Of a DNA stretch of 64,000 nucleotides, positions 27,367 to 56,166 are shown piece by piece. Both the position numbers and the translations under genes were made by a program. How positions within the stretch are numbered: position 1 is the stretch's first letter; each line of letters opens with the position of its first letter. Source of the DNA: Patescibacteria group bacterium (lineage in GTDB: Bacteria; Patescibacteriota; Minisyncoccia; Minisyncoccales; CAZWNE01); the NCBI GenBank assembly GCA_038078735.1, contig JBBTTI010000003.1, positions 8,538 through 72,537 of the forward strand, written 5' to 3'. A model generated the notes under the pieces. That model did no database searches and had not been told where the DNA came from. It saw only the letters and a program-made list of their open reading frames with translations.

Positions 27367-27502
27367 CGTGCCATTTCATACCCTTATGTATCCTTTATAC
27401 CCCACCTCAAGCCACATCGTCAACAAAATTCCCCACTTCTAAAAATAAGGCTAAAATCAAGATTTATGCACACCTTTTCCCCACCACACATAAATAAAAC
27501 AT

Positions 27503-27585
27503 CAGAGGGGTGTCCTCCGCTGTTTTCTGTGGTTGGCTTAGCCAACCACAACTACTGCTTAATCTGGAAGGTTTCAGGGTTAATT
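27503..27585. repeat. ~83-bp direct repeat (left copy) duplicating the 3' end of the clpB-like gene; boundary of island 2
   Basis: cagagg..tcctccgctgttttctgtggttggcttagccaaccacaactactgcttaatctggaaggtttc is about 93% identical to 29175..29259. This left copy has in-frame stops. Confidence 0.8.
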
Positions 27586-27597
27586 TTTATTCGAAAT

Positions 27598-27618
27598 GAT
27601 AGACGTTCAACGTCTATC
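27598..27618. repeat. REP-like palindrome, GATAGACGTT-c-AACGTCTATC variant
   Basis: Perfect 10-1-10. Sister copy at 35690..35710. Confidence 0.7.
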
Positions 27619-27662
27619 ATTCGTCTATTACTATGTTTATCACTATTTTAATAATAAAAAGG

Positions 27663-29099: not shown

Positions 29100-29174
29100 T
29101 TTTTATTCAGTTTCAAAAGGACTTCTGTCCTCCTTTATGTTTAGATTAACCATAAATCAATAAAAGTCAAACAG

Positions 29175-29259
29175 CAGAGGTCTGTCCTCCGCTGTTTTCT
29201 GTGGTTGGCTAAGCCAACCACAACTACTGCTTAATCTGGAAGGTTTCGGGGTCGATTTC
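29175..29259. repeat. ~83-bp direct repeat (right copy), overlapping the intact clpB-like 3' end and stop
   Basis: See 27503..27585. Includes the GTGGTTGGCTaAGCCAACCAC hairpin. Confidence 0.8.
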
Positions 29260-31761
29260 TACTTTACTGCCGCGCTTTATTTGATCAGAGAGAATGGCTG
29301 TGGCTAGGACATTGCCGATTTTGTCTTGGATAACTCTTTGCATCTGCCTGGCGCCAAAAGTCGGATCATATCCTAATTCCACAATCTTTGCTTTCAACTC
29401 GGGAGTTATAACAAATTCAATTTCCTTTTCCGCTAAATTCTTTTTCAGCTTCTTTAACAGAAGTTCGGCTACGCCTAAAAGATTATTTTTTGATAATGGA
29501 CCAAAGACAACCACTGAATCAAACCTGTTAATAAATTCCGGTCTAAAGATCGCTTTCTCAAAAACAAAATCCAAAAGCTTTGCCTTGACTTGGTCCCAAA
29601 CAGTATTTTCTTTTAACGCTTCGAGAATTATCTGATATCCGGCGTTTGACGTGGCAATAATAATTGAGTTTTTAAAATCAGTTTTCCTGCCCAAACCATC
29701 AGTCAACTGGCCCTCATCCAACACTTGCAAAAATAAATTTAAGATATTGGGATGAGCTTTTTCAATTTCATCTAAAAGTATTAAAGAGAAAGGCGCTTCT
29801 CTAATTTTAGTGGTTAACAACCCCTCTTGGCCGGGAGAACCGATTAAACGGGGAATATCGGCAATGTCTTGGAATTCCGACATATCCAGCCGAATCATTT
29901 TATTTTCCGAACCAAAATAAATTGTGGCCAAGGCCTTAGCTGTTTCAGTTTTGCCAACGCCGGTCGGTCCTAAAAATAAGAACGAACCGATCGTGCCTTT
30001 TCTGATACTGACTTCGGCTCTCGCCCTTCTTAGAGCCGAAGAAACCTCCCTAACAGCCTCTTCTTGATTAATAATCCTCTGATGAATTAAATTTTCCAAA
30101 TTTAAAAGGACTTCTTTTTCTTTTGTTTCTATTTCGCCAACCGGAATCTGGGTTTTTTCTGAAACAATTTTAAAGACATCTTCCGGCAAAAGTATTCTGG
30201 CTTTTTTCTGAGAGGCATAGACTATTATTTCATCCAATAATTTTATTACTTTTTCAGGATTAGTCTGCGAGGGCAAATATTTATCGGAAAGCCGGACGAT
30301 TTCCCGCAAGCTGGAATAAGAAATAAAAATCCTGTATCTTCTTTCCAAAATTAAAGATAAATTCTCTAAAAGCAATAATGTCTCCCGCTCTGAAATTTCC
30401 GCCACTTCAACCTTTTCAAAAAGATCTAAAATAGAAGAATTCTGCTCAATATTTCTGTGAAGGCCCTCAAAAGTGGTGATGGCTATTACCGGGAAATTTG
30501 GCAAAGCCAAGTAGGGCAAAATCACCCCGGAAATATTTAAAAAATTATGAAACTCGTCAATGACTAAAATAATATTTCCGGCAGTCGCTACTTCATTAAA
30601 AATAGCGTTTAAAAGGCTCTCCGGAGCTCCCTGATTGGTCAGACTTGCCAAATCAAGTTGCACTACTCTTTTATAATTAACTTCTTTTAAGCTCTCGCCC
30701 AAAACACTTCTTTTGGCTATAGCCTGAATTATGCTTTTTCTGCCGGACCCCGACTCTCCCACCATCAAAACGTTATTTTTTTCTCTGCGGGATAAAATTC
30801 TTTCTATCGCTTGAATTTCTTTTTGATGGCCGATAGTTTCCGGAAAGCCCTGCCTTTTGACCATATCTGACAAATCAAGAGAAAATTTATCCAAATTTAA
30901 AGTGTATCCGGCTGTCCAGTTTTTTGCCAGAGAGCCCTGTTTTATTAAATTTTTCCATTCCCAGAATTTTTTTCTCTCTTCAATATCTTCTTTCAGCGAC
31001 TGAAGCCACCAATTTAAATTTTTAATATCCTGATTCTTTAAATTAACGGCAACCAAGTACTTTTTGAAAGTAATATCAATTTCGCTGAAGGCCGATATTA
31101 AGTCCCCTACGCCGATTCTTTCTCCTCCTCGGTCTTTAGCGGCCTGAAAAGCAAGTAAAATAACTTTCTGGAAATCAAGGGAAAAAATTTCTTCCCCTGA
31201 ACGAGCTGAAGGGTCTCCCCGGAGCTTATCTAAACAAATTTTCAAGTCTTTTTTTATCCCCTTTAAATATAAAAGGGCCCGGGTAAATATAAAATTAATC
31301 TCCTTGCCGTCTTTAAGCGCAAAATAAAGCAGGGCCTCGGAAGAAATTTCGGCTAATTTTTTCTTGCGGGAAAATTTGATTGCTTCCCAACAAGCATTAG
31401 CCGCCCCAAGACTTAAAAATTCAGCTAAATTTACTCCTTCTTTATAATCTGGCAACCGAGGTTTTTTTAACTCCGACGCGCTTCCTAGCGGTCGGAGCTC
31501 CGATACTGATGGTCGTCGGAGTTTAGTTTTGAAAAAAATTTCCAAAAGCCAAAAAGTAATTGCCGAGGATAGAGTGATTAAGGAAAGCGCCAAAAATCTT
31601 TCCGGGAAGGAACGATAAAAAAGGGCCACCAAGAAAAAGAAAAATAAAGCAAAAAATAACCTTCTGATTAATTTGGCAAATCTGAAAACCGGAGTTTTTC
31701 CCCATTTTACCGCCGTAAATATTTTTGCTTTTTTTAAATTAAAATAGAATTGAGAATCCAT
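29224..31761 (-). CDS. ClpA/ClpB/ClpC-like double AAA+ ATPase with N-terminal TM segments and non-canonical D1 Walker A
   Basis: Clp N-domain repeats. D1 has GESGSGRKS in place of GEPGVGKT, with Walker B DEFH. D2 is canonical (GPTGVGKTE, sensor 2 GAR). The hydrophobic N-terminus is FFALFFFFLVALF. Confidence 0.75.
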   Translation of the reverse strand: MDSQFYFNLKKAKIFTAVKWGKTPVFRFAKLIRRLFFALFFFFLVALFYRSFPERFLALSLITLSSAITFWLLEIFFKTKLRRPSVSELRPLGSASELKKPRLPDYKEGVNLAEFLSLGAANACWEAIKFSRKKKLAEISSEALLYFALKDGKEINFIFTRALLYLKGIKKDLKICLDKLRGDPSARSGEEIFSLDFQKVILLAFQAAKDRGGERIGVGDLISAFSEIDITFKKYLVAVNLKNQDIKNLNWWLQSLKEDIEERKKFWEWKNLIKQGSLAKNWTAGYTLNLDKFSLDLSDMVKRQGFPETIGHQKEIQAIERILSRREKNNVLMVGESGSGRKSIIQAIAKRSVLGESLKEVNYKRVVQLDLASLTNQGAPESLLNAIFNEVATAGNIILVIDEFHNFLNISGVILPYLALPNFPVIAITTFEGLHRNIEQNSSILDLFEKVEVAEISERETLLLLENLSLILERRYRIFISYSSLREIVRLSDKYLPSQTNPEKVIKLLDEIIVYASQKKARILLPEDVFKIVSEKTQIPVGEIETKEKEVLLNLENLIHQRIINQEEAVREVSSALRRARAEVSIRKGTIGSFLFLGPTGVGKTETAKALATIYFGSENKMIRLDMSEFQDIADIPRLIGSPGQEGLLTTKIREAPFSLILLDEIEKAHPNILNLFLQVLDEGQLTDGLGRKTDFKNSIIIATSNAGYQIILEALKENTVWDQVKAKLLDFVFEKAIFRPEFINRFDSVVVFGPLSKNNLLGVAELLLKKLKKNLAEKEIEFVITPELKAKIVELGYDPTFGARQMQRVIQDKIGNVLATAILSDQIKRGSKVEIDPETFQIKQ

Positions 31762-32458: not shown

Positions 32459-33063
32459 TTGAGATAACGATATTTTTTAAATTGGTCTTTAAAAAATTGA
32501 TATTTTTTATAACCGAATTTTTCCAGCATTTTTTTGATATCTTCTTTTTGCAATGGATCGAATTCCATAAAGATCATATTACTTTTGTCTTTAGCTTCTC
32601 TCAAAAATATCTTAATAATATCTAATCCTTTTTCTCCGGAAAAAAGAGCGATGTGCGGTTCTTTTTCCAAAACCGAAAGTTGGACTTCATTGATGCGTTC
32701 CGTTGCTATATAAGGCGGGTTGGCAAAGATGACATCGTATTTTTTCCTTCTGATTTTTTCAAACAAATCTGATTTATAAATTTTATATCTTTTTGGAGAT
32801 ATTCTATTAAGCTTTAAATTAATTTTAATCTGCTTAATCGCGCCTTCATATATATCAACGAAGTCTACTCGACTATTTTTAATATTTTTCAAAACAGCAA
32901 CCCCAATGCATCCCGAACCGGCAAATATATCTAACGCTTTTAGAGGCTTAGCTTCCTTTTGGAAGCTAAGCCTCTTCAGAGCTTTTTCTACCCAGAATTC
33001 AGTTTCAATACGAGGAATCAAAACTTTTTCCCTTAAATCAATTTGACAGTTTAAAAATTTCAT
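32449..33063 (-). CDS. prmC: release factor glutamine N5-methyltransferase PrmC/HemK-like
   Basis: SAM-binding DIFAGSGCIG and the NPPY motif (FANPPYI). An in-frame family-B-variant palindrome lies at 32942..32975. Confidence 0.8.
   Translation of the reverse strand: MKFLNCQIDLREKVLIPRIETEFWVEKALKRLSFQKEAKPLKALDIFAGSGCIGVAVLKNIKNSRVDFVDIYEGAIKQIKINLKLNRISPKRYKIYKSDLFEKIRRKKYDVIFANPPYIATERINEVQLSVLEKEPHIALFSGEKGLDIIKIFLREAKDKSNMIFMEFDPLQKEDIKKMLEKFGYKKYQFFKDQFKKYRYLKCY
32942..32975. repeat. family B variant palindrome (AGAGGCTTAGCTTCC tttt GGAAGCTAAGCCTCT) inside the prmC coding sequence
   Basis: Perfect 15-bp arms, read in-frame as ..KRLSFQKEAKPLKA.. Confidence 0.8.
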
Positions 33064-33071
33064 ATCCCAAA

Positions 33072-33106
33072 AGAAGCTTAGCTTCTCACTTAGAAGCTAA
33101 GCTTCT
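33072..33106. repeat. REP-like palindrome, family B, copy 3 (between the tgt stop and the prmC start)
   Basis: Identical to copies 1 and 2. Confidence 0.85.
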
Positions 33107-33109
33107 AAT

Positions 33110-34258
33110 TTAAAATTTGCCTTGCTTGATTTTATTTCTGATGCCTTCAATGTAAGTGTTGAAAAAATACAGGTTGTGGAAAGTCAGTAATTTTAAGGCA
33201 GTAATTTCTTTAGCCCGAATAAGATGAGAGACATAATTTCTTTTATAATTTTGGCAGACAAGGCAAAAGCACTTTTTGTCTAAAGGATTTTTATCCGTCA
33301 GAAATTTTGTCTTAGCCATATCCATTTTACCACCAGAAGTGAAAGCAATGCCATGCCTGGCGTAATGAGTCGGGATAATGCAATCAACCGTATCAATGCC
33401 ACTTTTAAAAATTTTTATTAAGTCGCCGATATGGCCATTACCCAATAAATGCCTTGGCTTTTCTTCCGGTAAAACTTCGGTAACCCAATTTAACATTTTG
33501 AACATTTCTTTCTTATCAAATCCTAATTCGCCGCCTATGCCAAAACCGTCAAAATCAAGCCCGCTTATAAATTTAGCGCTTTTAATTCTTAAATCTTTAA
33601 ACTTGCCCCCTTGCACAATGCCATATAATGCTTGTTTTGCTTGCCCTGAGCTTGTCGAATGGGATTCAAGACAAATTTTCGCCCAAGAATGAGTCCTCTC
33701 TATTGATCTTTTCGTATACTCGTAATCGGCAATTGGCGGCGGACATTCATCAAAATTAAAAATTATGTCAGCCCCTAACTGCTCTTGTATTTTAATAGAC
33801 TCTTTCGGCCCTAAAAATAATTCACTGCCGTTGATCGGCGATTGGAAAAATACGCCATCTCTGGTAATTTTTAAGGATTTCGGCTGCCTGCCGGATTTAA
33901 TAGATAAAGATTCTTCTTTATTCAACATCTTTCCCATTTTAAAGTCCTTGCCAAAGCCCAGAGAAAAAACTTGATATCCTCCGGAATCGGTCATCAAGGG
34001 CTTTTGCCAATTCATAAATTTATGAAGACCGCCGGCTGATTTCACAATTTTTTCTCCCGGCTTTAAATGTAAATGAAAAGTATTACAAATTAAAATTTGG
34101 CTTTTAGTTTGTTCAACCTCTTCTGAAGTCAAGGTTTTTATAACCGCTTGAGTAGCCACCGGCACCAAACACGGCGTTTCCACCACGCCGTGAGATGTTT
34201 TCAAAATACCTAACCTCGCCCGAGATATTTTAGATTTTTTTAGAATCTTAAAATCCAT
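33110..34258 (-). CDS. tgt: queuine tRNA-ribosyltransferase
   Basis: TGT catalytic region (DSGGYQV, LHLKPGE) and C-terminal zinc site (CFCLVC...H). Confidence 0.9.
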   Translation of the reverse strand: MDFKILKKSKISRARLGILKTSHGVVETPCLVPVATQAVIKTLTSEEVEQTKSQILICNTFHLHLKPGEKIVKSAGGLHKFMNWQKPLMTDSGGYQVFSLGFGKDFKMGKMLNKEESLSIKSGRQPKSLKITRDGVFFQSPINGSELFLGPKESIKIQEQLGADIIFNFDECPPPIADYEYTKRSIERTHSWAKICLESHSTSSGQAKQALYGIVQGGKFKDLRIKSAKFISGLDFDGFGIGGELGFDKKEMFKMLNWVTEVLPEEKPRHLLGNGHIGDLIKIFKSGIDTVDCIIPTHYARHGIAFTSGGKMDMAKTKFLTDKNPLDKKCFCLVCQNYKRNYVSHLIRAKEITALKLLTFHNLYFFNTYIEGIRNKIKQGKF

Positions 34259-34295
34259 TTTATTATCTTATCATAAAACCGAGCCCCGTAAACGT

Positions 34296-34330
34296 GAAAA
34301 GGAGGTGTCGTAGAATTGACACCTCCTTTT
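34296..34330. terminator. perfect 12-bp hairpin (AAAGGAGGTGTC..GACACCTCCTTT) + T-run
   Basis: Lies between the tgt start and the island ORF. Confidence 0.5.
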
Positions 34331-34405
34331 TATTCTTTCGAATTTACCTTAGACCGCTAGCGCGATCTGGGCCGACAAGGCGCCGGCTCTGCCCGGGATT
34401 TCGGG

Positions 34406-35281
34406 CTAAAATTGGTCGTCCGATCCGTCCGCGAAATCATCGTCCGATGTGCGGACTGGGCAAATTGCCGCCTCCAAACTCTGGCGAATTTGGGCGAACC
34501 GCCGGGACTTAGAAATCCCTTTGGTCGCCGCAAGGTCGGCGACGGCCTTCTGGACAGCCAGTTTTAGGATGGCGAGGTCCAGTTTGGACTGAACTACTAT
34601 GGTCTCCGCCATCGCCCTAGCGATCTCCTCCTTGGTCTGCTGTTCTCGCCTTACCTCGGCGAGTTCGGCGGACTTAGAAGAGATTTGCACTTGGAGTTGG
34701 GAAATTTCCGCCCTTAGACCTGAAACGGTTTTCTTTTCCGTCTCAAGGTCGTAATGGAGGCGATTTATTTCCTCTCTTTCCATCGACCGCTCAATTTTAG
34801 TAGTAATCTCCCTACTGTAATCGAACGACTTACCGGTGACCTCTGTAAACCCTCTCCGAAAAAATTCGGCTGCTTGAGCAACTATGACTTCGACTTTCTC
34901 CGAAGCCTTCCCCCACCCCCCTCCAAAGGAAGTGAGAAAACCCTCTACATCATCGAGTACATCCCCATGAGGGGATGTACCACTGGCCCAGCTAGGACTC
35001 TTAATTACTATTTCGACTTTACCATCCCGGCCGGGTCCATTTACCAATTCTCCGGGGCGATAAAAGTCTAGGTAACCCCACAATAGTTTCCCCTCTAAAG
35101 CAATTTTGGCGGCCACGAATAATCCGTGGTCATCATTATGCGTTGGCAACACCCGCAACCTCCGCAACTCAACCCTATCCACCTCCTCCATCCCCGCTAC
35201 CACTGCAGCCACTTCCTCTCCTACTTTGCCAGCGAAAGTCTTTATTTCTTCCACTCTATTATTAATCATCTGGGTTTTCAT
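34406..35281 (-). CDS. hypothetical coiled-coil protein on a GC-rich island
   Basis: 291 aa at about 52% GC against ~35% background. Central coiled coil and an acidic C-terminus. No family recognised. Confidence 0.5.
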   Translation of the reverse strand: MKTQMINNRVEEIKTFAGKVGEEVAAVVAGMEEVDRVELRRLRVLPTHNDDHGLFVAAKIALEGKLLWGYLDFYRPGELVNGPGRDGKVEIVIKSPSWASGTSPHGDVLDDVEGFLTSFGGGWGKASEKVEVIVAQAAEFFRRGFTEVTGKSFDYSREITTKIERSMEREEINRLHYDLETEKKTVSGLRAEISQLQVQISSKSAELAEVRREQQTKEEIARAMAETIVVQSKLDLAILKLAVQKAVADLAATKGISKSRRFAQIRQSLEAAICPVRTSDDDFADGSDDQF

Positions 35282-35689
35282 TTTTTTCGTCCTTTTTCTT
35301 TTCTTTTTCCGCCTTCATTTCTGCAACTCCTTGTCCTGTTTTTTCTTGGCCTCCTTGCCAGAAAAACTCATCAAGTCGTTCAGAAAGCCGATCGGAAATA
35401 TTGCTGCGAAGCAGCAATAAAATGACTAATTAATAATCAGCTTATTGCTACTTCGCAACTCCTTATTAAATTTTTAAAGAAGCTGGTTTCAATGCCTAAA
35501 TTATATCATACTACTCCAACTTTGTCAAGTTTTTGTACTGGTTCACATAATATGATACACCCAGCACTTGAAAAATATGAAAGGCAGGTACAATGGTTGC
35601 CGTATGACAATCTACGGCACAATTCTGCCCGGAGCAGCCGCTATTGCCCGTTCGGCGTTCCTGACAGATAAATTAACGGAGCGTGAGAT

Positions 35690-35710
35690 GATAGACGTTG
35701 AACGTCTATC
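35690..35710. repeat. REP-like palindrome GATAGACGTT-g-AACGTCTATC
   Basis: Perfect 10-1-10, followed by CATTAC as at 27619. Confidence 0.7.
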
Positions 35711-35748
35711 ATTACATTTCTCTCAAAAAAAAGGCACGGTGGAGAAAT

Positions 35749-36101: not shown

Positions 36102-36122
36102 TGTTAGACGTCTGGCGTCTAA
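36102..36122. repeat. REP-like palindrome family A variant GTTAGACG-tctgg-CGTCTAAC
   Basis: Perfect 8-5-8. Identical core at 55651..55671. Confidence 0.8.
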
Positions 36123-36146
36123 CATTACATCGCACAACTTGCGAGA

Positions 36147-46882: not shown

Positions 46883-47557
46883 TCAGAATTTGAAACTATT
46901 TCTATGTATAGCACATCGTCCAAATCTTTTCAACATTTCAAGGTGTAATTTCGTTCCATAGCCCTTATGAAGATCAAATCGGTATTTTGGGAACTTTTTA
47001 TGATACTTGAGCATTATTCTGTCCCTCGTCACTTTGGCTAAAATTGAAGCCGCGGCGCAGGAAAAAACTTTTTCATCGCCCTTCACGATTAGTTTGTAGT
47101 TTATAATTTTTAGTTTATAGTTTTTGATATTATTGCCGTCTATTATCAAAAAATCGGGCTTCAACTTTTTAATCGCTCTTGCCATCGCTAACTCTGCCGC
47201 ATTTTTAATATTAATCTTATCTATGATTTTTTCTGAAACAATGCCAATCCCCCATCTTATATTTTTATCTTTTGTTATTAAGTTATAAAAAAATTCCCGC
47301 TGTTTTGCAGATAATTGCTTTGAGTCCCTAATTTTTAGGAGAACGCTTCTCCCTTGGAGAAACGTTCTCCAATTTATTATCACCGCTCCTGCCACCACCG
47401 GCCCGGCCAACGGCCCACGGCCGGCCTCATCCAACCCAGCCACATTCTTAAATCCTTTTTTCCACAATTTTTTTTCTTCCGCTAGTGTCGCATACCGCAT
47501 GTTTTTTATTTTAGCACAAAAAAAGATGGGAAAGTTAGATAAATCTAACTTTCCCAT
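46883..47557 (-). CDS. rnhB: ribonuclease HII
   Basis: GLDEAGRGPLAGPVVAGAVI and later DSK...AASILAK motifs. The true start may be the internal Met (MRYATLAEEK). Confidence 0.85.
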   Translation of the reverse strand: MGKLDLSNFPIFFCAKIKNMRYATLAEEKKLWKKGFKNVAGLDEAGRGPLAGPVVAGAVIINWRTFLQGRSVLLKIRDSKQLSAKQREFFYNLITKDKNIRWGIGIVSEKIIDKINIKNAAELAMARAIKKLKPDFLIIDGNNIKNYKLKIINYKLIVKGDEKVFSCAAASILAKVTRDRIMLKYHKKFPKYRFDLHKGYGTKLHLEMLKRFGRCAIHRNSFKF

Positions 47558-47569
47558 CCTAAGGACTAA

Positions 47570-47761
47570 TTACCAAAGATCCTTATTCTTTTCGAGCCAC
47601 TCTTCGGCTCTTGGGTTATTTTTCACTTGAGCAATCGCTCTAGTAAAAGATTGTTTTACCTCCGTCCGAAGAGTCCCATTTCCACCGATAGCTTCCACCC
47701 TATCTGTGAATTTCATTTCTGTAAGAGTAAGGTATTTTTGATTTTTTTCTGTCTTTCTCAT
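47570..47761 (-). CDS. small hypothetical protein (~63 aa), translationally coupled to the upstream ORF
   Basis: GGAGG SD. The start abuts the stop of 47765..48181. Higher GC. Confidence 0.35.
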   Translation of the reverse strand: MRKTEKNQKYLTLTEMKFTDRVEAIGGNGTLRTEVKQSFTRAIAQVKNNPRAEEWLEKNKDLW

Positions 47762-47764: not shown

Positions 47765-48181
47765 TTACTCCTCCGCACTCATTCGGTCCGCGCCACATTT
47801 AGAGCAATAGCGCTGACCTACCACTACTAAATGTTCGCAAACAGGATGTTTCTCTAATTTTTGGGGAATAATCTCCCCAGCGCGCGAATGAGGTGAGTAA
47901 CGAGCGTCTTTTAACTCTACTAATACCCCGGGTAAAAGCTCAATCATATCGCCCGTCAAATCCCAAAAATCCCTCTTTTTTATACGTACCACATGTCTTT
48001 TCCCATTCTTAAGAGTAATTTCGACATCCCCACCCCTAAGAAAAGCGGTCATAAGATCCAGCTCCCCTGGGCCGTTAACGATTTCAACTTTATCTAAAAC
48101 ACCACTAGCCATAACGGCTTCCTCCTTTAGAAATACTGCGCATTTTCTCTCCCATAACGGTGAGAGTGCGGATTTCTCCAT
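47765..48181 (-). CDS. hypothetical protein with C-terminal Cys/His cluster
   Basis: Up to 138 aa, ending ..HPVCEHLVVVGQRYCSKCGADR, a zinc-ribbon-like cluster. About 50% GC. Confidence 0.4.
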   Translation of the reverse strand: MEKSALSPLWERKCAVFLKEEAVMASGVLDKVEIVNGPGELDLMTAFLRGGDVEITLKNGKRHVVRIKKRDFWDLTGDMIELLPGVLVELKDARYSPHSRAGEIIPQKLEKHPVCEHLVVVGQRYCSKCGADRMSAEE

Positions 48182-48339
48182 AGCAGCGAACTAAACACTA
48201 ATTTTATAATGTCCACTTCGCCGCTATAAAGATTTTTTTAAAGAGCCTACCAGTAAACTTTCATTAAATATAACACATATTGAACAATTTGGTAAGCCAT
48301 ATAAATTAAGTTTGATTTTTTATTATTCGTGTTAGGGTT

Positions 48340-48360
48340 GTTAGGTACTCAGTATCTAAC
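48340..48360. repeat. REP-like palindrome family A (GTTAGGTACT-c-AGTATCTAAC)
   Basis: Preceded by a gttagg half-site. Immediately 5' of CCCATCTTTCAGCC copy 2. Confidence 0.7.
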
Positions 48361-48370
48361 ATGTGCCTAT

Positions 48371-48409
48371 CCCATCTTTCAGCCTACAAATTTATTTATG
48401 AGCTGAAAA
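48371..48409. repeat. CCCATCTTTCAGCC...ATGAGCTGAAA element, copy 2
   Basis: Identical core to copy 3. Confidence 0.7.
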
Positions 48410-48484
48410 GTGGAGGAAAACAGATATTGCCGATATTAAATCTGTTTTCCTAGAGGTGCCCCTGTCGGCACAGGAACTTAATTT

Positions 48485-48661
48485 TTAATGCCTCAGTGCA
48501 TACCATAATGCAACTGCAATAAAAATTACAAGCATTACCAAAATTATGATCATGACAATCTCGCCCAAGGGATTGCCAAGCCAGTTCATTAGTAATTTAG
48601 TTAAAATTATTGTTAGGAGCACAATTATTGCTCCTCGTAATCCCTTTATTTTCTTTTTCAT
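48485..48661 (-). CDS. 58-aa two-TM membrane peptide
   Basis: MKKKIKGLRGAIIVLLTIILTKLLMNWLGNPLGEIVMIIILVMLVIFIAVALWYALRH with SD GAGGAAAAAATG. Under the ORF-track cutoff. Confidence 0.35.
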   Translation of the reverse strand: MKKKIKGLRGAIIVLLTIILTKLLMNWLGNPLGEIVMIIILVMLVIFIAVALWYALRH

Positions 48662-48689
48662 TTTTTCCTCACTTTATTTTATTTTTCAG

Positions 48690-48990
48690 TCCGCCAAGGC
48701 GAACTGCTATTGCCAAAGAACCATCTTAATTGATATAGGTGGGAGTTGTCGCAAGCCGGTCTGGCTTAACCCGACAACTCCCAACTTATTTTAGAGGAAG
48801 GCTTCGAACTTTTCCTTGCGGAAACCAGCGAAAAATATAGAATGGCACGCTTCTATATTTTAGCCGGAAGTCCGAGCCGTCTATCTGCAATCGCAATACA
48901 GGATGGCCCGACCGTACGTGCCAAACTTCGGTTGTGGGCCAGATAGACATTCCTTCCTCTCGGAAATTCCCGATATAGAAACTTCCGAAA
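48690..48990. ncRNA. densely nested structured region (candidate ncRNA or long structured 5' leader)
   Basis: Long-range GAGGAAGG/CCTTCCTC closure around GTCTATCTG/CAGATAGAC, GGCCC/GGGCC, TATAGAA/TTCTATA and TTTCC-GCAA-GGAAA helices, plus a 12-bp GGGAGTTGTCG/CGACAACTCCC stem. Strand undetermined. Confidence 0.35.
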
Positions 48991-49008
48991 AAAAAGATAT
49001 TTTAGGTT

Positions 49009-49029
49009 GTTAGATACTCAGTACCTAAC
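49009..49029. repeat. REP-like palindrome family A (GTTAGATACT-c-AGTACCTAAC)
   Basis: Immediately 5' of CCCATCTTTCAGCC copy 3. Confidence 0.7.
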
Positions 49030-49063
49030 ACGTGTCTATCCAATAATTTATAATTTGTTGATT

Positions 49064-49102
49064 CCCATCTTTCAGCCTACAAATTTATTTATGAGCTGAA
49101 AA
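49064..49102. repeat. CCCATCTTTCAGCC...ATGAGCTGAAA element, copy 3
   Basis: Followed by a GAGGAGTT..AACTCCTC hairpin and a GC-hairpin/T-run. Confidence 0.7.
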
Positions 49103-49171
49103 TGAGAGAGGAGTTGTTTTATTTTATGCCGAAACTCCTCTTCAACTTCGCCCGTTCGGCCCGGGCTTTTT

Positions 49172-49447
49172 TTATTTCACGCAGCGTAGCTGCTCACTAT
49201 TGGTATTGGGTGACGCTAAACGAAAACATATGATTCCACCCATAAGAGGATCGTAATACCTGTAGAGATTCGGATTTTTCGCTACAAGCACCCAACCTGT
49301 AATTTCTTCCGTGGGTGGCACGGGTATTGGCACGAGCATCTTAGGTGCACATGCACCCAAGAAAACTGAAATAGCAACCAAAAAGATTCCAAGCAAGATT
49401 ATCCTCACGATTTCCTCCTTATATATTCCTCTTCCTTTTACCGACAC
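49172..49447 (-). CDS. small lipoprotein, hypothetical
   Basis: Signal peptide with lipobox LGAC. 91 aa. Confidence 0.4.
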   Translation of the reverse strand: MSVKGRGIYKEEIVRIILLGIFLVAISVFLGACAPKMLVPIPVPPTEEITGWVLVAKNPNLYRYYDPLMGGIICFRLASPNTNSEQLRCVK

Positions 49448-49489
49448 ACTTCGGCGCCAAGAAATGAGGTTATTTCTCTTAAAGAACTG

Positions 49490-49861
49490 CTACGCCTCCT
49501 TTGAAATTATTTTTATAGGATAAGGGTAATTTTCTTTTACCCTTCCTATGAACTCGTCCTCCTTGTCTTTCGGCAGGACGACCATAATGCCATCCGGGGC
49601 GGCATAACGAAGAACATAAAATGATTTCTCCCCCGCCAGCGAGAAGGCCGTTCTCACTAAAGAGTTAAAATATTCAATAGTGAAAGGGACTCTTCTTTTC
49701 GGATTTATGGAAATCCGAACGTAGTTGGGAAGAAATCCGTTCTCCTCATCCGCCCGAACACCCCTAGTTATCTCAATCTCTAAAGGCATGACTTGCCCTC
49801 CTCTCTTTCTTTTATTTATGCCCATAGTATAGCATGGTGATTTTGACATGTCAAGTGGCAA
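49490..49861 (-). CDS. hypothetical protein
   Basis: 123-aa ORF. The likely real start is the internal MPLEIEITRG. No family recognised. Confidence 0.35.
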   Translation of the reverse strand: MPLDMSKSPCYTMGINKRKRGGQVMPLEIEITRGVRADEENGFLPNYVRISINPKRRVPFTIEYFNSLVRTAFSLAGEKSFYVLRYAAPDGIMVVLPKDKEDEFIGRVKENYPYPIKIISKEA

Positions 49862-49937
49862 GCCCCTTCAATTTTTGCTTTTAGAAAACAATTTCTGTAA
49901 GATAAACAATGCGATGCCAATATGCTAATACATACTA

Positions 49938-50375: not shown

Positions 50376-53300
50376 ATGAAGTTTACTCATTTACATGTTC
50401 ACTCTCATTACTCTCTTTTGGACGGCTTGCCGAAGATTGACCAGCTTTTGGATTATGTCAAAGAACTGGGAATGGATTCGGTGGCTTTAACCGACCACGG
50501 AGTAATTTACGGCGCCGTGGAATTTTATAAAAAAGCCAAAGCCAAAGGAATCAAACCAATCATTGGCTGTGAAATGTATGTTGCTTTTGAAGGAATGCAC
50601 CAGGAGAGGCCCAATATAGATGATAAAAAATACCATTTAATTTTATTGGTAAAAAATGAAACCGGCTATAAGAATTTAGTTAAACTTATTACCAAAGCCC
50701 AGCTTGAAGGATTTTATTACAAACCCAGAATTGATGAAGAACTTTTAGCTCAACATGCCGAGGGATTAATCGGCCTGACTGCTTGTTTACAGGGCAAAAT
50801 CCCCCGCTTGATTCTGTCCGGTAAAATTGATGAAGCTGAAAAAATCGCTTTGAAATATCAAACAATTTTCGGCAAAGATAATTTTTATCTGGAACTGCAA
50901 AGCCATCCCAATATTCCGGCTCAAGATAAAGTCAATAAAGTATTAATTTCTCTTTCTAAAAAATTAAATATTCCTTTAGTTGCCACCACTGACTGCCATT
51001 ACCTTCGGCCCGAAGACAGCGATGCCCAGGATGTTTTAATGCTCATAAACACCGGAGCCGATATCAATGACCCCGAACGTTTAACAATGAAGGGAGAAGA
51101 CTTTTCTATGCACTCTGCGGAGCGCATGGCAGAAGATTTTAAGGAAATTCCCGAAGCCATTGAAAATACCCAAAAAATTAAAGACGCCTGTAATTTTGAA
51201 TTTAAATTAGGCGAAATAAAACTTCCTTCTTTCCCCGTGCCAGATAATAAAACGCCAGACGATTATTTAAAAGAACTTTGTTATGAACGATTGGAAAAAA
51301 GATTTCCGGAAAAATCAAAAGAAGTTATTGACCGGTTGGAATATGAACTATCAACGATTGCCAAGTTCGGGTTTGCCCCATATTTTTTAATTGTCCAAGA
51401 TTTCGTTAATTGGGCCAAACAGAACCGAATCGTTGTCGGTCCGGGCAGGGGTTCGGCCGGAGGCTCGTTAACAGCTTATGTTTTGGGAATTACCAATATT
51501 GATCCATTAAAATATAATCTTTTATTTGAAAGATTTTTGAATCCCGGTCGCAGCGCTTCGCCGCCCGATATTGATTTGGATTTTACCGATAGAAGAAGAG
51601 ATGAAGTGATAAATTATGTTGCCGAAAAATACGGCCGAGACAAGGTTTCCCAGATTATTACTTTCGGCACAATGGCCGCCCGAGCTGTTATTCGCGATGT
51701 CGGCCGGGCTTTGGCCTATCCTTACAGTTTTTGCGACCAACTGGCTAAAATGGTTCCTTTTGGTATGACTCTTGATCAAGCATTGGCCAACGTTGCTGAT
51801 TTACGAAAAATATATCTTGAAGATTCGCAAGCTCAAAAATTAATTGATTTTGCTAAAAAACTGGAAGGCGTCGCCCGCCACGCTTCCACCCATGCCTGCG
51901 GCGTGGTTATTTCCAAGGAACCCTTGGACAATATTATTCCTTTACAGCACCCGACCCAAAATGATAAAAACATTGTTACCCAATATGAGATGCATTCAAT
52001 TGAAGATTTGGGAATTTTGAAAATGGATTTTCTTGGTTTAAAAAACTTAACGATTATTGAAGATGCTTTAGCCAGAATTTATAAAGTACAGAATAAATCA
52101 ATTGATATTGAGAATATCCCATTAGATGATAAAGCAACTTTCAAATTATTTCAAAAAGCCGAGACGGTCGGCGTTTTTCAATTAGAATGTTTGTCAGGAG
52201 ATACTATTATTTCAAATACTACAATTAAAAAATTATATGAAAGAAAAAATAAAAAAAGATTGACATCTATCTATTTGGATGAAGGCAAGGTTCATTTGAA
52301 TAAAATTATTGATGTTTTTGAAAGTGGTGAAAAGGATGTTTATTCTTTGATCACGGAGAATAATTGGTATATTAAGTCAACTAAAAATCATTATTTTTTA
52401 ACAAAAGATGGCTGGAAAAAATTAGAAAATATAAAGCCGAACGACGAAGTTTTAATTGGTAATAAGGCCAAACATTTAATTTATAATAACTGTGAAACAT
52501 GCGGAAAACAAATAAGCGGACAAAAAGAAGGTAAAAGCAAATTTTGTTACCATTGTTCGGCTATTTTTTACAAGAATCCAAGTAAAAGAGAATCGAGAGA
52601 AAAAATTAGTGCGGCAAGAATAAAGTTTTATCAGCAAGGTGGTAGGCCTTGGAATATCGGAATAACTACTGAAAATAACGAAGTCTGGAAAAGAACTGCT
52701 AAAAAAATATCTCAAGCGCTAAAGGGCAGAAGCCTAGAAGAATTATGGGGGAAAGAAAGAGCAGAATATTTTAAACAATCTCATTCGAAGAGGATGAGGG
52801 GAGAAAATAATCCTATGTTCGGGAAAAAATGCCCTCATCGAAAAGGTGGCTTTAGAGAAGATTTGAAACATTATGTTCGCTCTACCTGGGAAGCAGATTT
52901 TGCCCGAATTTTAAAACTTAAAAATTTAGATTATCAATATGAACCATCAACTTTTAAATTAACAAGGCGAAATGGAGAAATCCTCCATTACACGCCGGAT
53001 TTTTATGTTAAATCTAATAATACTTTCTATGAGATTAAAGGCTTCCTTAGAGATTTAGACGAAGAAAAAATGGAATTATTTCAACGGCAATATCCGCAAT
53101 ATAATTTTATAATAATCAACACAACTAAATTCGCTGAATTTGCCCTACAATATAAAACACTGGTTAATTGGGAATGTCCGCAAATACCAAAGAAAAATTA
53201 CGAATTTATTAAAGTAAAAAAAATAAAATATAGCGGGCGAGAAAAAACTTACGATATTAAGATGCAGTCGCCGGGCAATAATTTTGTAGCTAACGGTTTT

Positions 53301-54674
53301 ATAGTTCACAATAGCGACGGTATGCGCCGATATTTGAAAGAATTAAAACCAAACGGCTTAGACGATATTATTGCCATGGTCGCCCTTTACCGACCTGGTC
53401 CGATGCAGTTTATTCCTGATTATATTTCCGGGAAACAAGGGGAAAAAATGATTGAATATATACATCCCAAATTAAAACCGATTTTGGAAGAGACTTACGG
53501 CATTTGCGTTTATCAGGAACAAGTTATGAGAATTGCCAGGGATTTAGCCGGGTTTTCTATGTCAGAAGCCGATATTTTAAGAAAAGCCATCGGTAAAAAA
53601 ATCAAAAAACTTCTAATGGATCAGGAAGAAAAATTTATTAAAGGCTGCGAAAAAAACGAAATTCCGAACAATATCGCCCAGAAAATCTGGCGCTGGATTG
53701 AGCCGTTTGCCCAATATTCATTCAATAAATCTCACGCTACGGCTTACGCTTTAATCGCCTACCAAACCGCCTATTTAAAAACTAATTTCCCGGCTGAGTT
53801 TATGGCTTCATTTTTAACTTCGGAAAAAGCTGACGTAGAAAGAATCGGCTTCATAATCGGCGAATGCAAAAAAATGGGTTTGGAAGTTTTAGCTCCCGAT
53901 ATTAATGAAAGTTTTGCCTTTTTTAGCGTGGTTCCTCAAAGAAACCAAATCCGCTTTGGGCTAACTGCCATAAAAAATGTTGGAGAAAATATTGTTAAGG
54001 CTATTGTTGAAGAAAGAAAACAAAATGGCCCTTATCTCTCAATCTCCGATTTTGTCAGCCGAGTTAATTCTAAAGACTTGAATAAAAAATCATTAGAAAG
54101 TTTAATCAAAGCCGGCGCTTTTGATAAATTTACCGAAAGAAACCAATTATTGCAGAATATGGAAAAATTATTGGAATCGGCCAGAGAAACTCAGAAAAAT
54201 AAAAACAACGGCCAGCAAGGTCTTTTCCAAGGAATTTCTCAAAATACTGATTTTTCTCTTCAGCCGGCAGTTTTGGCTACTAAAGCGGAAAAGCTGGCTT
54301 GGGAAAAAGAATTACTGGGATTATTTGTCAGCTCGCATCCTTTGGAAAATTTCAGCAAGATTTTAGAAGAAAAAACTCAGAGCATTGAGAAAATAAAGGC
54401 TAATTTTACAAAGTTAGTTCGCAAGCCGGTTAAAATTGGCGGGATAATTTCTTCAATCAAAAAAATTATCACCAAAACCGGCCGGCCGATGTTTTTTATG
54501 AACTTAGAAGATATGAAAGACAAAATTGAAGTGGTCGTTTTTCCTAACGCCATTGAAAGAAACCCCTCGGCCTTTCAGGAAAATAAAATCGTTTTTATTT
54601 CAGGCAGAGTTGACGACCGAAACGGCACGCCCAAAGTCATCTGCGAATCAATAGAAGAAATTATTGAAAGCTAA
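50376..54674 (+). CDS. dnaE: DNA polymerase III alpha subunit, interrupted by an intein
   Basis: PHP domain (HLHVHSHYSLLDG), palm/fingers motifs, OB fold. The host sequence ..VGVFQLE / SDGMRRYLKEL.. is split by a 375-aa insertion. Confidence 0.9.
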   Translation: MKFTHLHVHSHYSLLDGLPKIDQLLDYVKELGMDSVALTDHGVIYGAVEFYKKAKAKGIKPIIGCEMYVAFEGMHQERPNIDDKKYHLILLVKNETGYKNLVKLITKAQLEGFYYKPRIDEELLAQHAEGLIGLTACLQGKIPRLILSGKIDEAEKIALKYQTIFGKDNFYLELQSHPNIPAQDKVNKVLISLSKKLNIPLVATTDCHYLRPEDSDAQDVLMLINTGADINDPERLTMKGEDFSMHSAERMAEDFKEIPEAIENTQKIKDACNFEFKLGEIKLPSFPVPDNKTPDDYLKELCYERLEKRFPEKSKEVIDRLEYELSTIAKFGFAPYFLIVQDFVNWAKQNRIVVGPGRGSAGGSLTAYVLGITNIDPLKYNLLFERFLNPGRSASPPDIDLDFTDRRRDEVINYVAEKYGRDKVSQIITFGTMAARAVIRDVGRALAYPYSFCDQLAKMVPFGMTLDQALANVADLRKIYLEDSQAQKLIDFAKKLEGVARHASTHACGVVISKEPLDNIIPLQHPTQNDKNIVTQYEMHSIEDLGILKMDFLGLKNLTIIEDALARIYKVQNKSIDIENIPLDDKATFKLFQKAETVGVFQLECLSGDTIISNTTIKKLYERKNKKRLTSIYLDEGKVHLNKIIDVFESGEKDVYSLITENNWYIKSTKNHYFLTKDGWKKLENIKPNDEVLIGNKAKHLIYNNCETCGKQISGQKEGKSKFCYHCSAIFYKNPSKRESREKISAARIKFYQQGGRPWNIGITTENNEVWKRTAKKISQALKGRSLEELWGKERAEYFKQSHSKRMRGENNPMFGKKCPHRKGGFREDLKHYVRSTWEADFARILKLKNLDYQYEPSTFKLTRRNGEILHYTPDFYVKSNNTFYEIKGFLRDLDEEKMELFQRQYPQYNFIIINTTKFAEFALQYKTLVNWECPQIPKKNYEFIKVKKIKYSGREKTYDIKMQSPGNNFVANGFIVHNSDGMRRYLKELKPNGLDDIIAMVALYRPGPMQFIPDYISGKQGEKMIEYIHPKLKPILEETYGICVYQEQVMRIARDLAGFSMSEADILRKAIGKKIKKLLMDQEEKFIKGCEKNEIPNNIAQKIWRWIEPFAQYSFNKSHATAYALIAYQTAYLKTNFPAEFMASFLTSEKADVERIGFIIGECKKMGLEVLAPDINESFAFFSVVPQRNQIRFGLTAIKNVGENIVKAIVEERKQNGPYLSISDFVSRVNSKDLNKKSLESLIKAGAFDKFTERNQLLQNMEKLLESARETQKNKNNGQQGLFQGISQNTDFSLQPAVLATKAEKLAWEKELLGLFVSSHPLENFSKILEEKTQSIEKIKANFTKLVRKPVKIGGIISSIKKIITKTGRPMFFMNLEDMKDKIEVVVFPNAIERNPSAFQENKIVFISGRVDDRNGTPKVICESIEEIIES
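52188..53312 (+). mobile_element. DnaE intein (Cys1...His-Asn, +1 Ser) with embedded zinc-ribbon / 3x NUMOD3-like / PD-(D/E)xK-like endonuclease module
   Basis: Block A CLSGDTII, block B TKNHYF (TxxH), blocks F/G YDIKMQSPGNNFVANGFIVHN. Insert has CETCG...CYHC, three repeats such as SREKISAARIKF, AKKISQALKGR and HSKRMRGENNPMFGKK, then HYTPDFYV...YEIKG. Confidence 0.85.
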
Positions 54675-54724: not shown

Positions 54725-54973
54725 ATGTCTAAAAGATTACAAAAAATTTCATCGTACTATGCGGTTTTTGATCTAGCCCAAGAGGGCGGATATAACGTTT
54801 CTTTCCCGGATTTTCCCGGCTGTGTTACCTTTGGAAAAACCTTTGAAGAATCTAAAAAAATGGCAAAAGAAGTATTGGAACTTTGGCTTGAAGAACTTTC
54901 ATCTCAAAAAGAGGAAATCCCGATTAAAACTTTTAGACCGATTATTGATGAAGTAGAAGTCGCTCTTCCTTAA
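54725..54973 (+). CDS. hicB: HicB-family antitoxin (short form)
   Basis: YYAVFDLAQEGGYNVSFPDFPGCVTFGKTFEESKKMAKEVLELWLEE matches the HicB/UPF0150 fold. Confidence 0.75.
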   Translation: MSKRLQKISSYYAVFDLAQEGGYNVSFPDFPGCVTFGKTFEESKKMAKEVLELWLEELSSQKEEIPIKTFRPIIDEVEVALP

Positions 54974-54976
54974 ATT

Positions 54977-55189
54977 ATGAAGCCGCTTGCCACTGGTAAA
55001 TTGATAAAAATCTTAAAAGAAAACGATTTTGTATTATCTCGCCAAAAAGGCAGTCATCAAATTTGGAAAAACCTAAAAACCAACATAATCGTTCCTGTTC
55101 CTCTGCACGGTAAATCAAATCCTATCCACCTCGGAACATTTATCGCCATAATAAAACAATCAAAAATTCCAAAAGAAAAATTTAAATAA
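54977..55189 (+). CDS. hicA: HicA-family mRNA interferase toxin
   Basis: LKENDFVLSRQKGSHQIWKN...VPVPLHGKSNPIHLGTFIAIIKQSKI matches the YcfA/HicA fold. Confidence 0.75.
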   Translation: MKPLATGKLIKILKENDFVLSRQKGSHQIWKNLKTNIIVPVPLHGKSNPIHLGTFIAIIKQSKIPKEKFK

Positions 55190-55200
55190 ATTATTTCTAT

Positions 55201-55237
55201 AAAAAACAGCTCCGCCAAAACGGAACTGTTTTTTTAT
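55201..55237 (+). terminator. rho-independent terminator after hicA
   Basis: AAAAAACAGCTCCG..CGGAACTGTTTTTTT. Confidence 0.65.
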
Positions 55238-55249
55238 AGGGATGTTAGT

Positions 55250-55270
55250 GTTAGGTACTCAGTGTCTAAC
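55250..55270. repeat. REP-like palindrome family A (GTTAGGTACT-c-AGTGTCTAAC)
   Basis: Preceded by a gttag half-site. Confidence 0.7.
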
Positions 55271-55650
55271 ATCCTAACCGGCGCCTATTGTAACTCTACC
55301 CAAAGAGTTGTGAGAACCATCGCTAGCCTCGAAAAAAATACTATTATCATTGACCAAAACGGTCAATGATGGCAGTCCTAGACTGCCTAAGCGATGGGCC
55401 TCAGTTCGGAATGATTCCCAATTATCGCGAAGTAACCTCTCCGCCCTTTTGGCTGCCATATCGAATTCCATTTTTTCCTCCTTCTCACGCCTGCCTAAAT
55501 AGGTCAGGACTTATAGAGTACAAGGCCGCTATTTCCCTAGCGGCGAGATGAACACCAGCGGAGAACCGTTCTCCGTTAAGCTGACGATCATTTCGCCGCC
55601 AAGGAATTTTATAAAAGAGCTTTCCCAAATCTGAATTCGCAATTTAGAAT

Positions 55651-55683
55651 GTTAGACGTCTGGCGTCTAACACCACGTCTAAC
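55651..55683. repeat. REP-like palindrome family A variant (GTTAGACG-tctgg-CGTCTAAC + extra CGTCTAAC arm)
   Basis: Same core as 36102..36122. Confidence 0.8.
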
Positions 55684-55744
55684 AACATTTCGAACTAAGA
55701 TTTAGTGTGGGGCGAGAAGCATTTTATTGCTCCTGCCCCACTTT

Positions 55745-55978
55745 TTAACCACCCTTTTTTCCTCCTTTCTTCCCCCTCAGCCGACCCATGGCCCAGCCGA
55801 TAAGGAAAATAAAAATGGTTATTGTTAGCAACGGTTGCCATACCGCTGCTATCGCCCTCGCTAAGAGGGCTCCGAACCAATGTGGGTTGACGATAAATAC
55901 TATCGCCGCCAACCCCACCACCACCCACAGCGTCCTCCTCGGGTCCCCAAGGAGAAAAGATACCCATCTCCTTCGCAT
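55745..55978 (-). CDS. 77-aa two-TM membrane protein on a GC-rich islet
   Basis: Strong SD (AAGGAGGGAAAATG). MRRRWVSFLLGDPRRTLWVVVGLAAIVFIV...GKKGGKKGG. About 55% GC. Confidence 0.4.
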   Translation of the reverse strand: MRRRWVSFLLGDPRRTLWVVVGLAAIVFIVNPHWFGALLARAIAAVWQPLLTITIFIFLIGWAMGRLRGKKGGKKGG

Positions 55979-56166
55979 TTTCCCTCCTTAAAAAATCTTT
56001 TTATTTTTCTATAATTTCTTACCGTTTTTTCGCGGCAGCGAGGTGGCCTCTCTTTGACATAAAGCCCGAAAGGCCACTTCGCTACTGCGAATATTTATAG
56101 TATAGCATACTGCCTTGAACTTGTCAAGGGATTTAACAACCGCTGGTTTTATGCTATTATAATGAA

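Follow-up and report, generated by a model that had tools for sequence, protein, structure and literature searches.

A non-coding region at positions 48662-49005 (344 nucleotides, nt) of the 64,000-nt stretch of contig JBBTTI010000003.1 that is analysed here and called the window is a real and strongly structured element that belongs to no database family. The window comes from the metagenome-assembled genome (MAG) of an uncultured bacterium of the Patescibacteria (Candidate Phyla Radiation, CPR; Parcubacteria-like) from Hainich groundwater. On the minus strand, which is the likelier RNA, the region immediately precedes an open reading frame (ORF) for a hydrophobic peptide of 58 residues. It is possible, and this is the reading tentatively preferred here, that the region is a lineage-specific cis-acting leader of this orphan small membrane-peptide gene.

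The minimum free energy (MFE) of 48662-49005 is −132.9 kcal/mol (z −7.7) for the minus strand and −113.9 kcal/mol (z −5.9) for the plus strand, and in neither case is it equalled by any of 100 dinucleotide shuffles. The unusually stable multi-helix structure proposed in an initial annotation of this DNA is thus borne out, and every helix named there was located in the sequence at its expected place (Table 1). The extent of the structure, first given as 48690..48990, is right overall except at the far end, where the minus-strand structure runs to 48997. When the whole window is cut into 127 tiles of 344 nt, the region ranks first by z on both strands and second by raw MFE (the tile z values come from 15 shuffles each and the tiling was phased to contain 48662-49005 exactly). 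GC content is 0.45-0.47 inside the region vs. 0.28-0.33 in the adjoining non-coding DNA. When 150-nt windows are considered, several other intergenic stretches have z < −7, and two of them (48101-48250 and 48301-48450) belong to the very gap in which the region lies. Because these windows score alike, the description of the region as far denser than its surroundings holds for the long-range, multi-branched 344-nt fold and fails at the 150-nt scale.

The nested core of the fold is wholly Watson-Crick and thus carries no strand information. Other features exist on the minus strand only: the GCAA cap (a GNRA loop), the CUUG cap, a U.G pair in place of C.A, and the 5' hairpin H1, which has many G.U pairs and captures the GAGGAAGG strand. 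The 11-base-pair (bp) helix of GGCUCGGACUU with AAGUUCGAAGCC has one G.U pair and is also a minus-strand feature. The minus strand has the lower MFE and z, and it is the coding strand of the neighbouring genes. Moreover, a consensus scan of the minus strand found no terminator-like site between the upstream lipoprotein ORF and the peptide ORF; a strong terminator is met only at 47518-47558, after the 63-residue ORF. By its position, the region would thus be either intercistronic or the peptide gene's own 5' leader. Tetraloops, G.U pairs, H1 and the uninterrupted passage to the ORF thus agree with the minus-strand 5'-leader placement of the initial annotation, which is the better-supported one.

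The 58-residue ORF looks coding, judging from its Shine-Dalgarno (SD) sequence and its gene-like codon usage. The codon-usage log-odds is 0.117, compared with 0.18 +/− 0.07 for real genes of the window and −0.005 to −0.07 for spurious ORFs overlapping the region. The ORF was also called as a gene by the ENA pipeline, i.e., by an independent gene caller. The N-terminus of the peptide is lysine-rich, and the 19-residue Kyte-Doolittle means are ~2.0 for residues 7-29 and 3.0-3.4 for residues 32-56. The small hydrophobic two-segment ORF with a good SD (GAGGA, 5 nt 5' of the ATG) was therefore correctly recognized from the start. A word-indexed search of 5.8 billion protein clusters gave no homologue of the peptide. 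HMMER against 1.84 billion representatives gave 2 matches, both to hydrophobic stretches of larger proteins (653 and 870 residues). Pfam, PHROG and PADLOC contain no family above noise for it. The neighbouring ORFs of 115/138 and 63 residues are orphans as well in the protein homologue searches.

The RNA itself has no recognizable relative either. Among the 4227 models of Rfam 15, none matches the region at the gathering threshold and no family is assigned at E up to 10, so that the region is placed in no known family. The best sub-threshold match is 6S (16.1 bits vs. 46.4 required), with many non-canonical pairs. The Rfam scan of the whole window at E up to 1 gives no match for the region, and ARAGORN finds no transfer-messenger RNA in it. 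Comparison by eye with RNase P elements, domain IV of the signal recognition particle RNA, group II domain 5, T-loops and the attC R'/R'' order led to their rejection, Rfam being unsupportive. Searches with blastn and nhmmer of the window and the loci of 12 relatives found no RNA homologue, and the region is single-copy in the window. Neither did blastn against phages and plasmids find one. Exact scans of viral contigs (16-mers) and metagenome contigs (19-mers) gave 16 matches, all to unrelated GC-rich coding DNA, and 46 matches, all unrelated, respectively; both scans need exact matches, so diverged relatives would escape them. A literature search on structured RNAs in Patescibacteria gave nothing relevant.

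The leader reading can be stated as a mechanism. The segment 48687-48997 would be transcribed on the minus strand as a long 5' leader (or as the lipoprotein-peptide intercistronic segment) and would set the translation level of the peptide via mutually exclusive helices. In the full-length RNA, H1 (48997-48951) would hold GAGGAAGG, which would leave CCUUCCUC (48801-48794) free to mask the SD GAGGA (48670-48666), and translation would be off. If processing or a bound factor took away or unfolded the 5' arm of H1, GAGGAAGG would close the multi-helix junction with CCUUCCUC and the SD would be freed. Cutting off the whole structured domain would likewise free the SD. What the analysis shows is the helices with their stability and strand asymmetry, and an ORF of coding character; transcription, the switch and its trigger are inferred.

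The predicted folds agree in part with this scheme. In transcript models that include the whole ORF, the SD pairs with CCUUCCUC (48794-48798) with a probability of 0.95-0.99 per base, the start codon being open, and in the same ground state H1 captures GAGGAAGG (48959-48952). When the GAGGAAGG:CCUUCCUC closing helix is enforced on the minus strand, the energy is −168.9 kcal/mol vs. −176.1 kcal/mol for the MFE, i.e., ~7 higher. On the plus strand the MFE includes the closing helix because H1 cannot form there. As a function of the 5' end of the model, the mean SD paired probability is: (i) 0.99 for ends from 49176 to 48995 (full leader); (ii) 0.34, 0.42 and 0.22 for ends at 48988, 48975 and 48960 (5' arm of H1 trimmed), with reversals to 0.92 and 0.93 at 48980 and 48965 in the same range; (iii) 0.97-0.99 for ends from 48955 to 48800 (GAGGAAGG lost); (iv) 0.14-0.15 for ends at 48790 and beyond (CCUUCCUC removed). 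The 12-mer CUCGGACUUCCG (48865-48876) could also form a pseudoknot or an alternative helix with the 5' region. The duplex is worth −16.6 kcal/mol; with both strands held free, a naive energy sum is ~15 kcal/mol less stable than the MFE, so this pairing is not favoured.

Several observations weigh against the leader reading. When 30 nt of the ORF are modelled instead of the whole, the SD is paired with a probability of 0.1-0.4 and CCUUCCUC pairs with GAGGAG in codons 9-10. When 22 control genes of the window are folded globally in the same way, 4 reach an SD pairing of at least 0.97, the median being 0.73. As SD pairing depends on the chosen end, is matched by controls, and the pseudoknot is not favoured, the switch is a reasonable model and not a finding. 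Cluster and contig look-ups retrieved a single population only, and its copies, from three ENA assemblies of Hainich origin and from several Logan runs, do not differ anywhere in the structure; every copy being identical and no RNA or peptide homologue being found, comparative or covariation support is absent. No convincing promoter was seen by eye directly upstream on the minus strand, where only a TAAAAT with a poor −35 occurs. From the locus-tag numbering, the peptide and the RNA are apparently both outside the NCBI annotation. Finally, the nested core, with ~50 pairs, is exclusively Watson-Crick and lacks G.U, which a young or DNA-level palindrome cluster fits equally well.

This last point leads to a first alternative, i.e., that the region has no RNA function and consists of nested DNA palindromes left by mobile or REP-like (repetitive extragenic palindromic) elements, or by recombination, in a hypervariable island. 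Such an origin seems unlikely, though it deserves serious weight. The strong folding would then follow simply from the perfect inverted repeats of which the region is made. This origin accounts for core pairs that are equal on both strands, and other intergenic regions fold about equally. The dnaE-rnhB interval is indel-prone, partial gene duplications of the window adjoin palindromes of this kind, and palindromes and other repeats abound between the genes of this genome, among them a 23-nt palindrome (11 copies) in which arm changes are compensated. However, the region is single-copy and GC-enriched vs. AT-rich spacers, no terminal inverted repeats or target duplications were seen by eye at its edges, and a strand-neutral DNA element does not need the minus-specific G.U pairs of H1 and the tetraloops.

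The 23-nt palindrome, TG(T/A)TAG-N11-CTA(A/T)CA, behaves like a REP-type element. All its copies in the 64 kb are intergenic, and most lie 22-141 nt beyond the stop of a minus-strand gene. Symmetric compensated changes affect 5 of the 11 arm pairs, up to the central base, and 94.5% of the cells are paired; this covariation score is reached by none of 500 shuffles. It is these flanking palindromes, and not the structure itself, that resemble REP elements and bacterial interspersed mosaic elements: they are short, numerous and intergenic, their arms stay complementary, and they lie mostly past stop codons. They differ in that the dyad symmetry reaches the central base and in that the motif is not found in the loci of related species; the search for it in the relatives' loci and in viral contigs gave no match. 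No REP-associated transposase was seen in the window, where no search was aimed at one.

A second alternative is an independent structured RNA gene of a new, lineage-specific class, trans-acting or protein-binding, that merely happens to lie upstream of the peptide gene. The fold, which is multi-branched and GC-enriched, bears GNRA and CUUG loops and is unmatched in Rfam, would suit such a gene, as would the palindrome-ended modules on both sides; unassigned structured intergenic RNAs are also common in related loci. Against it, no minus-strand terminator precedes the ORF, from which the structure is separated only by a 25-nt A-rich SD linker, and the minus-strand consensus scan upstream found no clear promoter of its own. 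Moreover, the region has no paralogue in the window and no homologue in relatives, and it is missing from the closest relative recovered. This alternative is thus clearly unlikely. One of the RNAs of related loci lies just upstream of rnhB in locus L013 (~5750-6010, plus strand): it is a multi-branched RNA of ~220 nt (about 5790-6010) without Rfam match, with a TTGACA-17-TAAAAT promoter, five hairpins (one GCAA-capped) and a terminator. As a homologue of the structure it was rejected, since its helix layout differs and it is not evidently homologous.

The third alternative was suggested by the initial annotation, i.e., a type I toxin-antitoxin system. The 58-residue peptide would be a membrane toxin whose primary mRNA is kept inert by the leader, and the antitoxin RNA would come from the opposite strand, from module B (CTAACA-18-TATAAT) and/or from module A. 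This reading is improbable. The peptide is hydrophobic and shorter than 60 residues, in agreement with the listed features of type I toxins, which according to reviews have a single alpha-helical transmembrane domain (PMC8309996). Two hydrophobic segments are thus a departure from the usual one, and the statement that known type I toxins are two-transmembrane peptides is contradicted by the reviews. The peptide belongs to no described type I toxin family by Pfam, PHROG, PADLOC or the protein searches. Type I toxins may have primary mRNAs in which an anti-SD in cis masks the SD (PMC8594479), and the anti-SD pairing predicted here, with its release upon 5' truncation, recalls dinQ (PMC5066626; PMC8594479). 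SD/anti-SD pairing with competing helices is thus predicted in the full-length models, but this pairing is end-dependent and, as seen with the controls, not distinctive; complementarity of modules A and B to the leader plus ORF does not exceed chance.

The antitoxin would have to be sought in modules A and B, direct repeats that bracket the peptide and the structure. Both follow closely on the stop codons of minus-strand ORFs, module A on that of the peptide and module B on that of the lipoprotein. Their 40-nt elements are 100% identical, while their 10-12-bp hairpins differ in sequence. Read on the plus strand, the modules look like small transcription units ending in terminators, exactly at the peptide and lipoprotein stops, and module B has a promoter-like site. 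The 40-nt identity would allow an RNA from module B to pair perfectly with a peptide 3' untranslated region (UTR) reading through module A. Many type I loci share the orphan, strain-specific character of this one, and HicAB 6 kb away indicates that the genome keeps toxin-antitoxin modules. On the other hand, module A, which adjoins the ORF, is without exactly the 24 nt that carry the −10 of module B. A consensus scan found no promoter-like site antisense to the ORF or the leader, so that the antisense promoter which the type I proposal calls for did not turn up. Neither module overlaps the ORF or leader, and the best duplexes that A and B form with them do not surpass those of shuffled sequences (z −0.5 and −1.35). 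Both modules fold better on the minus strand than on the plus strand (z −4.7 vs. −3.2 for A and −5.3 vs. −4.3 for B) and may thus be shared 3' UTR elements. Since the same module stands behind an unrelated lipoprotein ORF, a generic 3' element is suggested, and similar palindrome-ended modules after other genes may mean ordinary 3' UTR or REP-like sequences. As a separate observation, four Logan contigs from independent assemblies (L081-L084) all end at 49073, inside the 40-nt repeat, which thus breaks short-read assembly graphs.

The comparison with known systems can be summarized by three likenesses. (i) dinQ/agrB, tisB/istR-1 and zorO/orzO of E. coli also have a small hydrophobic ORF behind a long folded 5' UTR, with a predicted SD/anti-SD pairing and a competing strand that frees the SD upon 5' loss (PMC5066626; PMC8594479). 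The present locus differs by its multi-branched leader of ~310 nt, its 58 residues with two hydrophobic segments and the absence of any sequence relationship; no antitoxin RNA with demonstrable complementarity was found. Leaders of the dinQ/tisB/zorO type are shorter than ~310 nt. (ii) In the 3'-overlapping systems of B. subtilis such as yonT/SR6, a small hydrophobic ORF is met at its 3' end by a unit of the other strand that has its own terminator, as here; txpA/RatA and bsrG/SR4 are further systems of this kind. In contrast to yonT/SR6, there is no overlap between module A and the ORF, and module A is without the promoter-bearing 24 nt of B. The yonT product likewise has 58 residues, and yonT lies on a polycistronic mRNA (PMC5848175). 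(iii) In translational riboswitches and SD-sequestering leaders, as in the model proposed here, the 3' strand of the helix closing the junction doubles as anti-SD. The region has, unlike riboswitches, no Rfam match, no conservation and no candidate ligand, and its anti-SD and SD are ~125 nt apart, two hairpins lying between them. A three-tier logic of exclusive helices is also common in ordinary regulated leaders.

Hardly any non-coding RNA has been characterised in the Patescibacteria, which are uncultured, reduced episymbionts. Most known type I systems come from Proteobacteria and Firmicutes, and to our knowledge none is known in Patescibacteria. If the leader gates the small membrane peptide, the locus would thus offer a rare view of RNA-based regulation in this group. 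In its boldest form, the ~310-nt three-tier switch (5' hairpin, anti-anti-SD, anti-SD, SD) would be the first example, so far from one genome, of a new class of patescibacterial RNA gating a two-helix membrane peptide, and possibly the first type-I-like toxin module of the CPR, with antisense RNAs from the duplicated opposite-strand modules; this form is highly improbable. The patescibacterial genomes considered here contain many unassigned, strongly folded intergenic regions besides a REP-like palindrome family, and since such regions are common in related genomes the surprise is less. The leader is a prediction from a single sequence in a strain-specific island, i.e., a candidate rather than a discovery.

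The genes around the structure nearly all share its minus orientation: rpsP, rnc, nusB, rpmF and rnhB, then the ORFs of 63, 115/138 and 58 residues, the lipoprotein-like ORF of 79 residues and an ORF of 123 residues. Beyond the latter, a PDDEXK_3 gene and the intein-containing dnaE are on the plus strand. Neighbouring proteins have NCBI entries (MEK9134855-59, locus tags AAB451_0094x, «MAG: ... [Patescibacteria group bacterium]»), the ENA contigs Hain_H14_* from well H14 (Hain_H14_02um_R1_246 in ERZ1292646 being the one for this locus) encode both the 58- and the 138-residue products, and RNase HII matches MAGs of Nealsonbacteria, Wildermuthbacteria and Parcubacteria. The lipoprotein, leader, peptide, 115-residue ORF, 63-residue ORF and terminator would form one strain-specific accessory unit. 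In a close relative (L005), RNase HII is 90% identical and dnaE is near-identical with the same intein. This relative shares 49412-49490 and 49825-49906 (non-coding, 87-91% conserved) and a homologue of the 63-residue ORF. The whole block ~47765-49411 (1.65 kb) is missing from it, other unrelated small ORFs being found there (L005 5204-5515). The dnaE-rnhB interval is thus a hypervariable, cassette-like island, and the structure is not a housekeeping RNA, the block being missing from a close relative. The intein of dnaE (50376-54674, plus strand; Pfam Intein_splicing) has a large insert, identical in L005. At a distance of 6 kb from the structure, 54725-55189 (plus strand) encodes a HicB-like antitoxin paired with a HicA toxin (Pfam E 1e-11 and 1e-14).

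Table 1. Positions in the window of the parts of the structured region, of neighbouring genes and signals, and of the flanking modules and palindromes (+, coordinates or feature of the plus strand; −, minus strand)
Feature	Position	Strand	Description
58-residue ORF, MKKKIKGLRG...WYALRH	48485..48661	−	two hydrophobic segments, about residues 7-29 and 32-56
A/U-rich linker with SD GAGGA (48670-48666)	48662..48686	−	SD 5 nt 5' of ATG 48661-48659
Hairpin CAGUUCGC-CUUG-GCGGACUG	48687..48706	−	CUUG tetraloop; U.G pair is a C.A mismatch on the plus strand
Long stem-loop with the 12-bp stem	48737..48786		20-nt loop containing a small GCC/GGC hairpin
12-bp perfect stem, TGGGAGTTGTCG with CGACAACTCCCA	48740-48751 with 48772-48783		extends to 15 nt, 93% complementarity
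CCUUCCUC	48794..48801	−	3' strand of closing helix; predicted anti-SD
Closing helix, GAGGAAGG with CCTTCCTC	48794-48801 with 48952-48959	+	from sequence
TTTCC with GGAAA	48811-48815 with 48820-48824		loop GCAA, GNRA on minus strand only
Hairpin AAAATATAGAA/TTCTATATTTT	48832-48842 with 48851-48861	+	11 Watson-Crick pairs, 8-nt loop; extends TATAGAA/TTCTATA
12-mer CUCGGACUUCCG	48865..48876	−	unpaired in the model of the initial annotation; complementary to CGGAAGU (48987-48981) and UCCGAG (48964-48959)
9-bp helix, GTCTATCTG with CAGATAGAC	48879-48887 with 48940-48948	+	from sequence, in both folds
Domain closed by GTCTATCTG/CAGATAGAC	48879..48948		holds GGCCC/GGGCC, inner ACCG/CGGU helix and 3-bp UGC/GCA hairpin
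GGCCC with GGGCC	48905-48909 with 48936-48940	+	from sequence
GAGGAAGG	48952..48959	−	5' strand of closing helix; SD-like anti-anti-SD in the model
H1, 21-bp bulge-free 5' hairpin, UCUUUUUUUUCGGAAGUUUCU with GGGAAUUUCCGAGAGGAAGGA	48997-48977 with 48971-48951	−	in MFE and centroid
Module A	48336..48485		adjoins peptide ORF stop; palindrome 48339-48361, 40-nt element 48370-48409, 12-bp hairpin 48414-48451, plus-strand terminator-like GC hairpin/T-run 48461-48485
Module B	49005..49176		palindrome 49008-49030, 24-nt insert with TATAAT, 40-mer 49063-49102, 10-bp hairpin, plus-strand terminator 49150-49176 at lipoprotein ORF stop
Promoter-like site CTAACA-18-TATAAT	49025..49054	+	10/12 matches; predicted start is first base of 40-nt repeat
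79-residue predicted lipoprotein ORF	49172..49411	−	directly upstream, same strand; LGAC lipobox read off the translation
115-residue orphan ORF	47765..48112	−	strong SD; downstream; stop overlaps start of 63-residue ORF 47570-47761
Intrinsic terminator, 16-bp perfect hairpin and T7	47518..47558	−	ends accessory transcription unit after 63-residue ORF, before rnhB
23-nt palindrome copies	37-59, 5620-5642, 5938-5960, 11597-11619, 27597-27619, 35689-35711, 36102-36124, 48339-48361, 49008-49030, 55249-55271, 55650-55672

Other repeats and structured regions are present in the window. The ~1-kb gap between hicA and thrS (55190-56166) has no convincing gene, no Rfam match and two copies of the palindrome, and in it 55662-56005 folds on the minus strand with −133.1 kcal/mol, on a par with the structured region. 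The queuosine-salvage gene (4501-5472, Pfam Q_salvage) is partly duplicated: 5349-5500 and 5764-5915, i.e., its start and upstream sequence, form a 152-nt duplication (84% identical) that leaves an ORF for a 46-residue N-terminal fragment beside a palindrome copy. Close to it, a 57-nt repeat (TTTACTCTATAAATGTCARGGCYTTGCC...GGCCGGTTCGGCCGA; 5523-5579 and 6536-6592, 96% identical) is intergenic in one copy and at the edge of a helicase-like ORF (6537-7736) in the other. A 98-nt hairpin-rich intergenic repeat (27492-27589 and 29164-29261) is 90% identical, with 150-nt z values of −8.8 and −7.1, which place both copies among the strongest folds at that window size. The 48-nt palindromic element AAAAGAAGCTTAGCTTCTCACTTAGAAGCTAAGCTTCTAAG (17632-17679, 19673-19720 and 33062-33109) probably corresponds to shared terminators, and one copy overlaps a weak sub-threshold Rfam match to L20_leader (E 0.025).

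A 44-residue, Met/Gly-rich hydrophobic ORF (MMDYNYMMGGAGGGMM...; 8944-9078, minus strand) has no Pfam match. The sequence upstream of it, up to 9374, includes a box resembling a promoter (TGTATAAT) and a leader that contains two short hairpins. The segment 8944-9380 was considered as a paralogue of the structure with its small membrane ORF and rejected, since it proved to consist of successive local hairpins together with a terminator and a promoter.

Strong folds without Rfam family are also found at 35282-35748 and 34162-34505 (35162-35505 on the minus strand has z ~−10 with 15 shuffles). The same is true of stable intergenic folds in related loci, i.e., L011 8925-9400 (plus strand, z −11.4) and L010 8500-8850 (minus strand, z −11.35), both with 100 shuffles. 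In L014, the gap 11780-12585 contains one transfer RNA, is otherwise without Rfam family, and reaches z ~−12 to −15 (12 shuffles).

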